Part shown: piece after piece, positions 5,563 to 63,946 of the stretch
Numbering within the stretch: the stretch's first letter is position 1
Layout of the letters: the number at the start of each line of letters is the position of its first letter
Assembly: GCA_964637115.1 (NCBI GenBank)
Contig: CAZWVL010000002.1
Span: forward strand, 1 to 64,000
DNA length: 64,000 nucleotides
From: an uncultured Methanosarcinales archaeon
Lineage (GTDB): Archaea > Nanobdellota > Nanobdellia > Woesearchaeales > ARS49
Reading direction: 5' to 3'
Made by a program: the position numbers and the translations under genes
The notes under the pieces: model-generated
What the model saw: the letters and a program-made list of their open reading frames with translations, nothing else
What the model was told of the DNA's origin: nothing
Databases searched by the model: none

Positions 5563-5825
5563 GTCGGAAATCCTGGCTCGGAAACCATTGACTTTGGTCG
5601 CAGGATTTCCGAGCATGCTCAAGAACCACCACAATCGATTATAATTAATTGGTGGTTCTTGACACGACGACAAATTTTGATTTTTGGCGCTATATATTAT
5701 TTGTGTAAGTGGAAAATAGACATAAGATTTATAACAAGAAGGATGATTAACATGTGTAATGAAAAGAGATGCACGCTGAAATGAATTTCAGCTGGGCTTC
5801 TCTTTGAGTCATAGGGAATGTTACA

Positions 5826-8112: not shown

Positions 8113-8208
8113 TTAGAACCAGTTAAGAATGCCTATTAAGTTCAAATGAGGCAGAGCCGAACTGGGTTCGGCTGGTCTCAAATTTAAAAAATTTGAGGTG
8201 ATTACATT

Positions 8209-15613: not shown

Positions 15614-16706
15614 TGTTTTTCAGGGTTCTAACGAGTAACGGCACAACCTTCTTCAAATCGTACTGCTTGACCTGCTGAAGACCATCTTTTGACAACTTAT
15701 TTCTTAATTTCTCGTCTGAAAGAAGTTGGACAATCTTCGTGGCAAATGAGTTAATATCGCCTTTTTCAACCACAAAATCCTGTGCTGACTTGCTTACGAT
15801 GTCGCGCACGCCGCCAACATCAGACGCGACAAATGGAGTGCCGGTTGCCATGGCTTCTAGCAGAACTCTTGGAAAGCCTTCTTCGTCGGATGGCATCAAA
15901 AAGATGTCGGATTGTGCATATAATTTCATAACTTCCTTATTTGGCACGCTGCCCAACGTTTTTACCCACTTGCTGAGCTTCTTTTTTTTGATTTGCGCCT
16001 GCAAAGTCGGTAAATATGGTCCATCACCGGCAATAATGAATTGTGCCTTTGATTTTTTCAGCACTTTTTCAGCAATCGGCACAAGATAATGCGCGCCTTT
16101 TCTTTCTGAAATACGATGCACGAACAATATTTGAGGAATTTTGTTCTTTGAATGCTTTGGCTTGAACCGGGAAAGATCAATTTCATTCGGAACAACAAGA
16201 ATTTTTTTCAAAGGCACGCCAAACTGCTGATGATAATACTTTTTCATCCTTTCAGTGCCTGTAACGAGATAATCCACCATCTTTAATGATAATCTGAGCG
16301 GCCAATCGTCGTTAATCTTCGACTGCAGCCAGCCTTTTTGCCAGAAATGCTTGAAAAACAAGTGAGGGAGACCGCAATTCCAGTAAAAAACTCTTCCGCC
16401 GAAGAATTTTGTCATAATCGTTGCTGCAATTGCGCCGAAAAAGCTGTAATGAACGTAAAAAGTATCATATCCCTGAAGACGGAGCATCAAAAGGCGCGCA
16501 AATGTTTCACAAAAGCGTGGCACAAAAGATTTTGCGCTTATCGTCTCAATATTTTGTACGTTAGAAAGCTGTGGCGCACCCCTTGCCTTCTCTATCAGCA
16601 CGGCCAGCCTCGTCTTCTTTCCCAGTTCGCCCAACAGTTTGTAAATATGAAAGAAATGTTCGCCAGCACCCTCGTCGTACTTCGGAAGAACATAAACAAG
16701 CTTCAT
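15606..16706 (-). CDS. Glycosyltransferase family 4
   Basis: PSDEEGFPRVLLEAMATG (EX7E) motif; start set to ATG 16706. Confidence 0.85.
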   Translation of the reverse strand: MKLVYVLPKYDEGAGEHFFHIYKLLGELGKKTRLAVLIEKARGAPQLSNVQNIETISAKSFVPRFCETFARLLMLRLQGYDTFYVHYSFFGAIAATIMTKFFGGRVFYWNCGLPHLFFKHFWQKGWLQSKINDDWPLRLSLKMVDYLVTGTERMKKYYHQQFGVPLKKILVVPNEIDLSRFKPKHSKNKIPQILFVHRISERKGAHYLVPIAEKVLKKSKAQFIIAGDGPYLPTLQAQIKKKKLSKWVKTLGSVPNKEVMKLYAQSDIFLMPSDEEGFPRVLLEAMATGTPFVASDVGGVRDIVSKSAQDFVVEKGDINSFATKIVQLLSDEKLRNKLSKDGLQQVKQYDLKKVVPLLVRTLKNIT

Positions 16707-17827
16707 TTTGCAACCTGCCGCCACAAATCAAGACAGTCCTGCAAGTTTTTCTTTGGGTCAAATTTTTCCATAACCAACTTTTGACCAACCTTGCCCATCT
16801 CCTTTGCTTTTTTGTGGTTTTCGAGCACTTCAAGAATACGCAAAGCAAGAATGTCAGGATTGTCTTTTGGCACGATAAAGCCGGATTTCTCGTCAATAAC
16901 AACATCCTTTGCATCACGGACATCAGTACAGATAACAGGAAGGCCGGCTGCAGCCGCTTCAACAATAACTAACGGAATTCCTTCGTAAAATGAAGGGAGA
17001 ACAAGAACATCTGCGGCTTTGTGATATTTTGGAATGTCAGCGTGTGGCACACGACCGGTAAAAATAATATCTTTACAGCCAGCAGCCATTGTTTTCAAAT
17101 TTATTTCATCCTTTCCACTGCCGACAATTAAAAATAAAGTTTTTGGACGCTTTTGTGCAACTACTTTGGCCGCTCTAATCAGCGAGCCAACATTCTTCTC
17201 AACAGAAAGACGACCTATAAAAAGAACAATTCTGTCGTAGCTGCTAATGTATTTCTCACGCACGCTGCCCTTTTCATCAGCAAACTTCTTCAAGTCAACC
17301 AAAACAGGAGCAACCTTGACTTTTTCAGCAGAAACCCCGAGAGAAATGACTTTTTCGCGTTCAGTATCGCATTCAACTCTCACTCCATCCGCCGTCTTAA
17401 TCAGCCATTTGCCGAACATATTGAAAAAAGGATTTTTCCAATCCTCCTTTTTCCAATAAGGATCATCGAAGAAGCTGGAGACGATGTTGACGATTAATGG
17501 AATTCCAAGTCTTTTCTTCAAAAGATAGCCAGCATACCCGCACACAAACGGATCCTGTGTTGTCACCAAATTAATTGGGCGCTCTTTGTGAATTTCCTGC
17601 GCAATCTTCGCAGCCTGCCAAGGAAAACGCCACTGATATTTGGAATTGGTAGGATAAGCAATAACATTCTCAGCAATCTTTACTGGCTTAAAGTCCTTTG
17701 CAGGAGTATAGACAACTAGAGAGATAAAGTCAACGTGCTCGGCATATTTTTTCAGCCGATCAGCTAAATCGCCCCTGCCCTCCTGAGTAAATACCGTGTT
17801 GTCCAAGCCAATCATTAAGACGTGCAT
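16703..17827 (-). CDS. Glycosyltransferase family 4
   Basis: FIGRLSVEKN and PSFYEGIPLVIVEA; start set to ATG 17827. Confidence 0.85.
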   Translation of the reverse strand: MHVLMIGLDNTVFTQEGRGDLADRLKKYAEHVDFISLVVYTPAKDFKPVKIAENVIAYPTNSKYQWRFPWQAAKIAQEIHKERPINLVTTQDPFVCGYAGYLLKKRLGIPLIVNIVSSFFDDPYWKKEDWKNPFFNMFGKWLIKTADGVRVECDTEREKVISLGVSAEKVKVAPVLVDLKKFADEKGSVREKYISSYDRIVLFIGRLSVEKNVGSLIRAAKVVAQKRPKTLFLIVGSGKDEINLKTMAAGCKDIIFTGRVPHADIPKYHKAADVLVLPSFYEGIPLVIVEAAAAGLPVICTDVRDAKDVVIDEKSGFIVPKDNPDILALRILEVLENHKKAKEMGKVGQKLVMEKFDPKKNLQDCLDLWRQVAK

Positions 17828-45233: not shown

Positions 45234-45403
45234 TAACCGGTGTGAAGATGGGCAGTTCTTTTTAAATGTTCGGATACTATATATAGGCGGCAACATAAGG
45301 TATTTAAATGGATTCTTCATGAGGACGATTAATGGAAAAAGAGGCAGCGCCGAATGCGATTCGGTTGGTCTCTTTTTCCATAGCGTAAGTTAAAGGATGC
45401 AAT

Positions 45404-54028: not shown

Positions 54029-54211
54029 TTATTTTCCTGCCAGTGTTGTCACTCTATATTGTGTGGAATATATTTCCTTTTACAACACTCTTTAAATATC
54101 TGTTTTCCTAATTTTTTTTCGGACGACGACAAAATTTTTTGTAAAAAGAGGCAGCGACGAAACTTGTTTCGTCGGGTCTATTTTTTGCAGGCAAAAAAGA
54201 GGTGTATTAGT

Positions 54212-62077: not shown

Positions 62078-62748
62078 GTCTTTAATATGAGATTTCCCCT
62101 TCCCTTTTTGACTTTCTTTATGAGGCCCTTTGCCTCAAGATCATCAATCATCAACGAAATTTTTGCTTCAGAATAAGGAAAGTTCTTCCTGATATCCTTC
62201 TGTGTAGTTCTTCCGCCTTCTTTCTCAATAAACTCCATAATCTTCTGCAATTCTTCAGGAACCGCAACTTCCCTAATTTCCTTGATTGTTTCAATTACTT
62301 TTTCAACAACTTTTGTGGGCTTGCGTGAAACTTTGAATACAATGTAGCCAAGAACCACAAAAGCAACCAGCCATACCAGCCAGCTAAGAGCCGGTTTTTT
62401 AGATAATTCTTCAAAAGGCGCTTCAGCCTCTATAAGCAGTTCATCATCAGCTTCAAAAGTCGGAAGCAGAATTAAATCTAAAACATAATCGCCTTCTTCT
62501 TGTGCAGTAATGTTTTCTATAATTTCAGAATCAGTTTTGTTATGCCAGGCGTGCAGTGAATATGTTCCGGCCGGAACGCTAAATGAATACGAGCCATCCT
62601 TGGCCACCATGAGCTGGCGAGGAGTGCTATTTATTTCAACTACCGCGTTTGGCAGCAGATTCAAGCCGAAATCATACACAATTCCATGAATTGAGACCCC
62701 CAAAACTGAAGGCAAAATCAGGAGCCACAAAACCCAAAACATCCTCAT
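62074..62748 (-). CDS. Membrane protein: extracellular Ig-like domain, TM helix and cytoplasmic wHTH
   Basis: SIHGIVYD..DGSYSFSVPAGTY, TM helix, then GGRTTQKDIRK..SEAKISLMIDDLEAKG..KKGRGN. Confidence 0.75.
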   Translation of the reverse strand: MRMFWVLWLLILPSVLGVSIHGIVYDFGLNLLPNAVVEINSTPRQLMVAKDGSYSFSVPAGTYSLHAWHNKTDSEIIENITAQEEGDYVLDLILLPTFEADDELLIEAEAPFEELSKKPALSWLVWLVAFVVLGYIVFKVSRKPTKVVEKVIETIKEIREVAVPEELQKIMEFIEKEGGRTTQKDIRKNFPYSEAKISLMIDDLEAKGLIKKVKKGRGNLILKT

Positions 62749-63019
62749 ACACATGCAGTACTTTTTCTAATATATAAAGATTGTGAGATAGTAAGTCGAA
62801 AAACTAAGCGTTTTTTGAGAAAAGGAGCATAAATCATTCTCCTTTAAGCTAAAAAGAGCCAAATGAACCTTTGTAAAGTATTAAGGCTGGAAGAACAGTT
62901 CCGATTCTCGAAGTCATGAAAGTATGTTTTTAAGCATCTTCAGGCATAGTAATGGTCATGAAAACAAGTTACTTAACCGGCAACGCCGAAACATGCATCG
63001 CATGGAGTAACGTGATAAT

Positions 63020-63083
63020 AACCCACTTGGAGGTAACGCCGAATGAGTTTGGCGGATCTCCAAGTGGAACCCACTTGGAGGTG
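63020..63083 (+). promoter_or_regulatory. Candidate translational RNA switch overlapping the SD
   Basis: 15-nt direct repeat at 63020-63034 and 63068-63082 flanking its 10-nt reverse complement at 63058-63067; SD GGAGGTG at 63077-63083. Confidence 0.6.
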
Positions 63084-63088
63084 GAAAC

Positions 63089-63946
63089 ATGAAAAATTTG
63101 ATAGCGATACTCGCTATTTTACTGGTAGTGTTAGCACCGGTAGCTCTTGCAGAAGAGAACGGCGACGCTTCAGATAGCGAAGACAAATCTCCGCGGGAAA
63201 AAGCCAAGGAGCGAATGGAAAACGCCAAAAGCAACATAGCAGAGCGCAAAGAAATGCGTGAAGAACGCAAACAAATGCGCCTTGAAACGCGCGAGGAAAT
63301 TAGAGCACTTCGAGAAAGCGTAAAAGCAGCTTGTGAAGCAGACAAGAACAGCGAAGAGTGCAAGACCGCACGCATGGATGCACGCGATGCAAAGCATACT
63401 TTGCTCGGACGCATAGCAGAAAAAATGGGTCCAACATTCAAACGTGCAGAAATGCTCAAGACAAGACTTGCAAGAATCCTTGCACACCTTGAAAGAAAAG
63501 GAAAGGATGTAAGCGGCCTTGACACAGGAGCTATCAACGCAAAGATAACAGAAGCACAAGCAATCTTTGACGAAGCAAAGAAGCTCTTTGAGCAGGCACG
63601 TGCTGCAGAAGCAGGCGAGAAAGACGAGCTCATGAAACAAGCAGCTCAGAAATTCCGCGAAGCCAACAAAGCGCTGAAAGAAGCCCGTGCACTGATTGTT
63701 GACTGGCTGAAATCAGTCAAGCAAAAAGATGCAAACGCAGTCGAAGAAAGCGCTTCAACAGCTCCAGCCGATGTAGATACAACTGCACCAGCAGCTGATG
63801 CAAATGCGACATCAGCAACGAACGTCACTTCCAGCACGGATAGTGATGATTCTGAAGATGAGTCAGAAGATGACGAGTCTGAAGATGCTGATGAAGGAAA
63901 TGCATCATCTCAGGTCAACGCCAGCACGAACGGAACAACCGCGTAA
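63089..63946 (+). CDS. Secreted coiled-coil protein with an acidic, disordered C-terminal tail
   Basis: Signal peptide (ALA|E), E/K/R-rich helices, one Cys pair, and a D/E/S-rich tail with N-x-T/S sequons. Confidence 0.75.
   Translation: MKNLIAILAILLVVLAPVALAEENGDASDSEDKSPREKAKERMENAKSNIAERKEMREERKQMRLETREEIRALRESVKAACEADKNSEECKTARMDARDAKHTLLGRIAEKMGPTFKRAEMLKTRLARILAHLERKGKDVSGLDTGAINAKITEAQAIFDEAKKLFEQARAAEAGEKDELMKQAAQKFREANKALKEARALIVDWLKSVKQKDANAVEESASTAPADVDTTAPAADANATSATNVTSSTDSDDSEDESEDDESEDADEGNASSQVNASTNGTTA

Follow-up and report, generated by a model that had tools for sequence, protein, structure and literature searches.

Positions 1 to 64,000 of contig CAZWVL010000002.1 (assembly GCA_964637115.1), the 64,000-nucleotide stretch termed here the window, contain at 62982-63091 a repeat-hairpin in the leader of a gene that starts at 63089. 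A sequence-only reading had proposed that this leader forms a new cis-regulatory RNA switch in which two mutually exclusive helices expose or bury the Shine-Dalgarno (SD) sequence. Judged by sequence comparison, the element is one copy of a dispersed family of hairpin cassettes of ~45-55 nt belonging to a Woesearchaeota (DPANN) lineage. It is probably a mobile or duplicatively spreading hairpin cassette that targets SD sites and not a sensor evolved for the 63089 gene, an explanation built on observed family membership, presence and absence at orthologous sites, architecture, covariation and energetics.

The repeat-hairpin and its orthologous sites

The arrangement previously described for the 63089 leader is borne out. 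A 15-nt direct repeat occupies 63020-63034 (copy 1) and 63068-63082 (copy 2) with 100% identity, and the 10-nt segment at 63058-63067, termed the anti arm, is the perfect reverse complement of 63023-63032 in copy 1 (25 nt off) and of 63071-63080 in copy 2 (3 nt off). A 7-bp inner hairpin with arms at 63038-63044 and 63049-63055 is present, the SD lies at 63077-63083 with the ATG at 63089, and the 9-mer AACGCCGAA is repeated at 62982-62990 and 63035-63043 inside a 12-nt repeat of 92% identity. The 15-mer is unique within the 1.27-Mb genome, and the exact 10-mer occurs in the window in three places only, these being the two copies and the complement. The 91-nt stretch folds at -36.5 kcal/mol compared with -18.9 ± 3.0 kcal/mol for shuffled sequences (z = -5.9; 0 of 200 shuffles as stable), and the pattern of repeat and complement is beyond chance. 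The fold in which copy 1 pairs with the anti arm and leaves the SD free (ON) is the minimum-free-energy fold; the alternative in which the anti arm pairs with copy 2 (OFF) exists, with an ensemble energy 5.8 kcal/mol above ON. The two pairings do exclude each other, and dozens of genes show the same three-way layout.

The leader was compared among 13 orthologues of the same genus, one from the genome of the window (G000) and 12 from congeners. A 48-nt insert running from copy 1 through the anti arm is present in two of them only, G000 and G014. The remaining 11 (G001, G002, G003, G004, G006, G007, G008, G009, G011, G012 and G013) have a single uninterrupted SD, with the target occurring once and the remainder of the SD and the ATG directly after it. 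The insert splits the SD exactly between GGAGG and TGGA and lengthens an upstream mini-ORF (open reading frame) by 16 in-frame codons. The distribution of filled and empty sites points to a lineage-specific insert that entered in the common ancestor of G000 and one sister species. An exact 23-mer scan of species-representative genomes for insert carriers found the G014 contig only, and the same 23-mer has no match in JGI metagenome contigs. The sequence-only reading had itself named homologous leaders without the three-way complementarity as what refutes a gene-specific cis-regulatory switch; insert and complementarity are both missing from 11 of the 13 leaders, and that proposal is therefore refuted. 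A described RNA family was also sought for the leader in Rfam 15, where the region 62500-63400 gave no match at E values up to 10; over the whole window Rfam returned tRNA only, and eight other cassette copies gave sub-threshold noise only.

The cassette family and its features in the window

The family first came to light through a weak BLAST match of the core at an unrelated gene in G005. The layout there is the same: a first copy of the gene start comes before a near-identical core hairpin, after which follow an arm complementary to that start and the real start itself. Two further genes were then found. A strict core pattern allowing one mismatch was too narrow and returned mostly chance matches, from which two real copies were picked by eye; covariance models were used instead, with R1 built from five copies and R2 from 32 copies. 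The genome of the window contains 22 copies by R1 and 24 by R2. The core at 63034-63057 scores 73.5 bits with R1 and 59.3 bits with R2, and its junction motifs are common to ~60 aligned copies. R1 matches occur in 13 of 14 genomes of the genus and in 45 of 77 genomes of the family, with 0-18 per genome in the family and none in the seven genomes of genus g16 (the genus and family tallies include the unpublished genomes G010, G023 and G094-G096, on which no sequence-level statement rests). Of 150 other genomes sampled in the order, 16 have strong matches with R2; these are spread over at least 12 other families, and the tally includes the unpublished G207.

The inner stems of distant copies are entirely different in sequence yet paired, with GAGG-CAGCG and CUGG-UCUC unchanged. 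In the 32-copy alignment, which is fitted to the model, pairing extends to 90.6% of cells and in 12 of 18 pairs both sides have changed, a result reached by 0 of 500 shuffles and approached by no slid control. The inner stem is 98.9% paired with four of its six pairs changed on both sides, and the junction motifs are near-invariant. Two described motifs were considered for the conserved internal loop by inspecting the alignments by eye, and both were rejected: the G.A pairs required for a K-turn (L7Ae) and the two 3-nt bulges across 4 bp of a bulge-helix-bulge are absent or not conserved.

The cassette follows a constant order of resident promoter, copy 1, CAGCG, covarying stem-loop, CUGGUCUC, anti arm, short spacer, copy 2 and start codon. 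The CAGCG and CUGGUCUC junctions are invariant, and the stem-loop between them varies in sequence and stays paired. The cassette sits directly 3' of a purine tract ending in GG, usually the GAGG of an SD; among 72 copies, the core is directly preceded by GAGG in 40 and by AAGG in 20. The anti arm starts a median of 32 nt (interquartile range 29-34) before the start codon, and 55 of the 60 copies with a callable ORF lie no more than 45 nt upstream of a co-oriented start codon. In most copies of the cassette, copy 2 is the SD of the gene, and most anti arms are A-rich and T-rich, like the SD contexts of the G000 genome. Since every copy has a half-site, a target-complementary arm and a rebuilt SD, the three-way complementarity is a trait of the family. 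TATA-like boxes upstream of the cassette lie in locus-specific sequence, and the start codon belongs to the gene and not to the repeat. The genes served are heterogeneous, including those for an ABC1 kinase, GAPDH, the ribosomal stalk proteins P0 and P1, aIF1/SUI1, an SSB-like OB-fold protein, ZPR1, DUF483 and orphan secreted or membrane proteins.

Not all targets are SDs: the cassette is also found at tRNA gene ends, with direct repeats of 13-15 nt, at gene starts, where they measure 13-35 nt, at the ends of upstream ORFs and in tandem arrays. Within operons some copies occupy the tail of the upstream ORF, as they do ahead of the P0 and P1 genes. The direct repeats vary in length from ~10 to 35 nt across copies and are accompanied by an extra inverted copy of the target. 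They measure 14-15 nt at the 63089 leader, 13 nt at the ABC1 kinase start (45330), 26 nt, without mismatch, at a pilin-like gene start in G014, ~35 nt in diverged form at GAPDH in G000, and 14 nt at a hairpin between convergent genes. The ends of the cassette are only quasi-palindromic, and the terminal inverted repeats with target-site duplication of fixed length that are typical of MITEs (miniature inverted-repeat transposable elements) do not occur. Identical tails of anti arm, spacer and SD are found at unrelated genes (the subfamily of L108, L129, L122, C4:5898 and C9:22125), and the 8137 copy and L126 have arms in common; the cassette is therefore able to supply an SD-bearing second hairpin of its own. 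Elsewhere the arms are plainly copies of the target.

Two further arrangements were observed outside the window. On contig C12 of G000 (16694-16961) two opposite-facing cassettes flank one apparently intron-bearing tRNA gene, each duplicating the adjacent tRNA end. Tandem cassette arrays with units of ~55-62 nt occur at L134 (contig C9 of G168), L071 (G002) and L081 (G084), one of them broken by an N run.

Features of the 63089 leader and other cassette copies in the window
Feature	Coordinates	Strand	Basis or remark
BRE/TATA-like promoter box of the leader (TATA-like octamer 62927-62934)	62917..62934	+	placement common to 12 congeners
Upstream mini-ORF, 44 codons; stop TGA overlaps main ATG as ATGA; cassette inside, in frame	62958..63092	+	frame open in congeners
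Copy 1, old half of interrupted target; ends GGAGG; 5' arm of long hairpin	63020..63033	+	G014 copy keeps the G007 empty-site sequence
Conserved cassette core: 5' junction, 6-7-bp inner stem, UGAG loop, 3' junction	63034..63057	+	covariance models R1 and R2
Anti arm, perfect complement of copies 1 and 2	63058..63067	+	inverted repeats
Copy 2, rebuilt target with working SD 63077-63083, 5 nt before ATG	63068..63083	+	single occurrence in empty orthologous sites
Downstream gene, 285-aa protein: signal peptide, long helical K/E-rich middle, acidic tail	63089..63946	+	no Pfam family
Second cassette copy, duplicates leaderless start of ABC1-type kinase gene (ATG 45404)	45330..45385	+	64 bits; Pfam ABC1
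Third cassette copy, at SD of 181-aa membrane protein gene	8137..8192	+	covariance model
Fourth cassette copy, at SD of 33-codon ORF; orthologous site filled in G001, G008, G011	54137..54194	+	covariance model
Fifth cassette copy, degenerate, duplicates gene start (12-nt direct repeat)	5757..5813	+	22.7 bits

The table lists the parts of the leader and the other copies in the window. Orthologues of the 63089 gene, which encodes a secreted coiled-coil protein, are present in most of 14 other genomes of the genus. Of its divergent upstream neighbours, one encodes a membrane protein in which CarboxypepD_reg and DUF7343 winged-helix domains are combined and the other a DUF460 protein; both fit an archaeon. 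The promoter box, which resembles a transcription factor B recognition element (BRE) with a TATA box, begins 30-31 nt 5' of a conserved ATGAAA in all 12 congeners examined, and on this basis transcription is predicted to start at ~62958. The transcription start would thus lie upstream of copy 1, as the switch proposal had supposed.

The mini-ORF beginning at the predicted start is probably leaderless. Its frame is open in 12 of 12 congeners with a length of 8-44 codons and ends at, beside or overlapping the main start, or joins the main frame; conservation was seen across the leaders L005, L013, L014, L016, L017, L019, L020, L022, L010, L033 and L034. A codon test of the frame is weak (dN/dS ~0.41; 75, 135 and 189 pairwise differences by codon position), the peptide being under weak constraint, and translational coupling of the mini-ORF with the main gene seems likely. 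A small native hairpin at 63071-63084, in which CCACU pairs with GGUGG, covers the 3' half of the SD even in the ON fold. Most empty orthologous leaders can form the same pairing; this hairpin therefore predates the insertion, and the 63089 gene may already depend on translation of the mini-ORF for the opening of its SD.

The upstream AACGCCGAA repeat (62979-63006) sits in a ~45-nt segment restricted to the long-type leaders of G000, G014, G006, G009, G011, G001 and G003. In G009, 17 nt of this segment are the same as the 5' half of the cassette core; R2 found no significant match at 62979-63006 in G000 or at five orthologous loci. The segment may be an older, decayed cassette nested in the leader.

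Turnover, energetics and competing explanations

Presence and absence at orthologous sites, from which mobility is inferred, varies at other loci as it does at the 63089 leader. The ABC1 kinase gene has a cassette in G000 and G005, a plain leaderless start in the close relatives G014 and G006 and an apparent decayed cassette in G007, with ~10 of 13 orthologues empty. In the GAPDH gene the copy lies within the first eight codons in G000, G008 and G001 and at the SD in G014 and G002, and nine of 14 orthologues are empty (the cassette in G000 is at 102560-102680 of contig C2, L140 and L158; further loci are L172 and L165). From the old GAPDH start a 25-codon ORF now extends across the cassette to a stop just past the new start. 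The rebuilt start region is near-identical in G000 and G008 and the old start region is species-specific, which suggests exchange of the filled allele between lineages. Neither the ABC1 nor the GAPDH distribution tracks protein similarity, which implies that cassettes were gained repeatedly, were lost precisely between the direct repeats, or were exchanged among lineages. At ~110 nt upstream of the ABC1 kinase start, G001 (L148) and G011 (L151) have an unrelated hairpin-rich insert of ~90 nt with repeated GGAAACC / GGTTTCC, also seen at L098 and L124, which appears to be another leader-inserting repeat family in the genus.

A search of the 98%-complete G000 for Y1_Tnp (PF01797), RVT_1, TnpB zinc ribbon, IS110, DDE_Tnp_1, rve, Cas1 and Phage_integrase gave no match, other transposase families not being included in the search; a tyrosine recombinase (Phage_integrase or XerA type) is likewise not matched in the assembly, from which the 3' end of the 16S rRNA gene is missing. 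Because no mobilising enzyme family was found and the direct repeats vary in length, it is host replication or repair that is favored as the means of spread. The cassette would then spread by host-dependent copying without a transposase, and we would guess at microhomology-mediated template switching at GAGG followed by fold-back synthesis across the hairpin, which could leave the inverted copy of the target.

Folds were computed for the predicted transcript 62958-63110. The ensemble energy is -52.2 kcal/mol with copy 1 paired to the anti arm compared with -46.4 kcal/mol for the anti arm paired to copy 2, placing 99% of the ensemble in ON and 8e-5 in OFF at 37 °C. The ON helix is the first able to form during transcription. 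Between 4 and 65 °C the predicted SD-free fraction in G000 is 97-99% with OFF at ~1e-4 to 2e-3, and in G014, which has a bulge in copy 1, ON is predicted at 71-99.8%. A thermometer, one of the analogies drawn for the leader, is at odds with a predicted SD-free fold of at least 97% of the ensemble across this range, with no release of the SD on warming, and a balanced translational switch does not agree with the 5.8 kcal/mol gap and the OFF fraction of 8e-5. Across all copies, when copy 1 is barred from pairing the median cost is 5.2 kcal/mol (range 0.3-13) and the unpaired probability of the SD window usually falls; start codons were chosen crudely in this analysis (sometimes a GTG or TTG inside the SD or a T-run) and only medians were used, with a better rule applied in the analysis of 72 copies. 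In the latter the duplex of the anti arm with downstream sequence has a median of -10.7 kcal/mol compared with -6.0 kcal/mol for the control.

In the explanation preferred here, the cassette would target purine tracts ending in GG, above all SD sites, in such a way that the gene keeps an intact SD. Copy 1 would pair with the anti arm as an extension of the core hairpin, forming first and being 5-8 kcal/mol more stable than the pairing of the anti arm with copy 2, and could serve as an internal decoy by which the anti arm is kept away from the real SD. Burial of the SD by the anti arm would require that copy 1 be removed or occupied. The modeled folds thus suggest near-neutral, self-insulating behaviour at the RNA level, and selection against translation-blocking copies alone would keep the three-way complementarity and the compensated changes. 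The complementarity would then follow from the way in which the cassette is built or inserted, and would not be a gene-specific sensor.

Several observations, which fit selection on the RNA at least as well as they fit pure selfishness, weigh against the view of the cassette as a spreading, near-neutral element. The junction motifs are invariant across the whole order, and orthologous copies show compensated pair differences at the 63089 leader, at the intragenic GAPDH copy and in the 54137 group. The anti arm of the old GAPDH copy is complementary to copy 2 at 13 of 13 positions with the rest of the duplication ~25% diverged, and the same gene, GAPDH, has acquired cassettes independently. In 55 of 72 copies the anti arm pairs better downstream than with copy 1, a comparison that favors the longer search space, and at the GAPDH copy of G000 the anti:copy 2 helix is the minimum-energy fold with the SD and AUG in its loop. 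The preferred explanation does not account for the match of the anti arm to local, non-generic targets, and neither an insertion event nor a mobilising enzyme was observed, mobility being a matter of comparative presence and absence.

These observations bear most directly on the alternative of a mobile riboregulator, in which a trans-acting factor (a protein or small molecule) reads the junctions and core and tips the balance between copy 1:anti and anti:copy 2, so that genes carrying the cassette join a post-transcriptional regulon. The invariant junctions with covarying inner stems across the order, the compensated changes, the GAPDH fold, the family-wide three-way complementarity with its excess of downstream pairing over the control and the drop in the predicted unpaired SD-window fraction in most copies when copy 1 is blocked are all in its favor, as is the persistence of copies at the same gene in up to four to five species. 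However, most orthologues are empty at the three loci tested (11 of 13, ~10 of 13 and nine of 14), copies at tRNA flanks, between convergent genes and inside ORFs occupy places where SD control is meaningless, the gene set is heterogeneous, OFF is at ~1e-4 at the 63089 leader, and no candidate factor was identified. Taken together we consider this explanation unlikely, and a family-wide regulatory role of the cassette doubtful to about the same degree. The more elaborate proposal that a factor toggles the anti arm via CAGCG / CUGGUCUC, wiring genes into a regulon, with the element spreading transposase-free by target-primed fold-back copying, seems quite improbable.

A switch of the riboswitch, attenuator or thermometer kind that arose specifically in the 63089 leader accounts for the two exclusive helices around the SD and for predicted transcription from upstream of copy 1. 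It sits poorly with the absence of the feature from 11 of 13 orthologous leaders, a core common to unrelated genes, the lack of an Rfam match at E up to 10 and the dominance of ON at 4-65 °C with a gap of 5.8 kcal/mol, and is very improbable. The sequence-only reading had also allowed for a duplication scar or a triple protein-binding site. The scar comes nearer the truth in the form of a duplicative insertion; a purely local event at one site, for which template switching in a quasipalindrome can yield a direct and inverted triplication, is contradicted by a 24-nt core that matches the family models at 59-73 bits alongside ~60 other aligned copies. A triple DNA operator for the divergent winged-helix membrane protein would draw on the DUF7343 gene upstream on the other strand, but the arms differ by locus and leave no common operator sequence, the site lies downstream of the predicted start, and it is missing from congeners that keep both genes. 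Local error and operator together are given hardly any probability.

Relation to known repeats and significance

The cassette is a small non-autonomous palindromic repeat, unusual in its SD targeting, in the direct and inverted triplication of its target and in that no transposase was found. The closest published likeness is to Neisseria REP2 and Borrelia IR-A/IR-B, dispersed leader repeats whose spread is unexplained (Parkhill 2000, Morelle 2003, Dunn 1994, via Delihas 2011, PMC3184786). Like these, it is a short dispersed repeat without classical terminal inverted repeats or a known transposase that lies just upstream of unrelated ORFs, carries the ribosome-binding site of the gene and has two internal stem-loops. 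In contrast, REP2 is a bacterial repeat of 120-150 bp that carries a promoter and ATG and has no target duplication or target-copied arm, whereas the cassette is ~50 nt, uses the resident promoter, splits and rebuilds the resident SD and has no sequence similarity to REP2.

MITEs and Rickettsia palindromic elements (RPEs), next in closeness, are similarly small, non-autonomous, palindromic and multi-copy with presence and absence among close relatives, as seen here at three loci. RPEs insert in frame in genes, and the cassette adds 16 in-frame codons to the mini-ORF and sits inside gene starts and ORF tails. It differs from MITEs in its direct repeats of variable length (~10-35 nt), the inverted copy of the target, a strict position and orientation relative to the SD and the lack of a cognate transposase family in G000 among the families searched. 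A high density of MITEs has been reported in a Woesearchaea genome, where the cassette family is not described (PMC11602168).

With repetitive extragenic palindromes (REPs) and their mosaic assemblies (BIMEs), associated with RAYT (Y1) transposases, and with the palindrome-associated transposable elements (PATEs) derived from IS200/IS605, the cassette has in common a short conserved motif beside a covarying hairpin and insertion 3' of a short specific sequence. PATEs are known in archaea. Unlike the REP/RAYT systems, G000 has no Y1 or TnpB match and the cassette no GTAG-type head; REPs are mostly 3' of genes without target duplication, whereas the cassette is mostly upstream of start codons. 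The likeness to riboswitches, thermometers and attenuators lies in the logic of SD, anti-SD and anti-anti-SD and, at the 63089 leader, in a mini-ORF read through alternative helices, but this leader lacks a sensor conserved in orthologues, balanced folds, an Rfam family, a terminator and regulatory codons. No printed description of the cassette family was found in the literature, and a full-text search combining Woesearchaeota, Shine-Dalgarno and hairpin was empty.

The lead towards a new archaeal riboswitch proves to be false, and in its place stands a searchable family defined by a covariance model, an invariant junction and a placement rule. In annotation, the cassettes give rise to spurious mini-ORFs, make real ones longer and shift the position of true start codons. 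Two questions are raised, namely how a transposase-free element makes a direct and an inverted copy of its target, and whether the triad of SD, anti-SD and decoy has been co-opted for the control of highly expressed genes. If the riboregulator explanation were true, each insertion would wire another gene (GAPDH, P0, P1, aIF1, ABC1 kinase, surface proteins) into one regulon. As a probable spreading element, the family shows how small, gene-dense DPANN genomes can tolerate selfish or semi-selfish DNA, with a cassette that lands on a ribosome-binding site, rebuilds it and would carry a decoy sparing translation from the new complementary arm.

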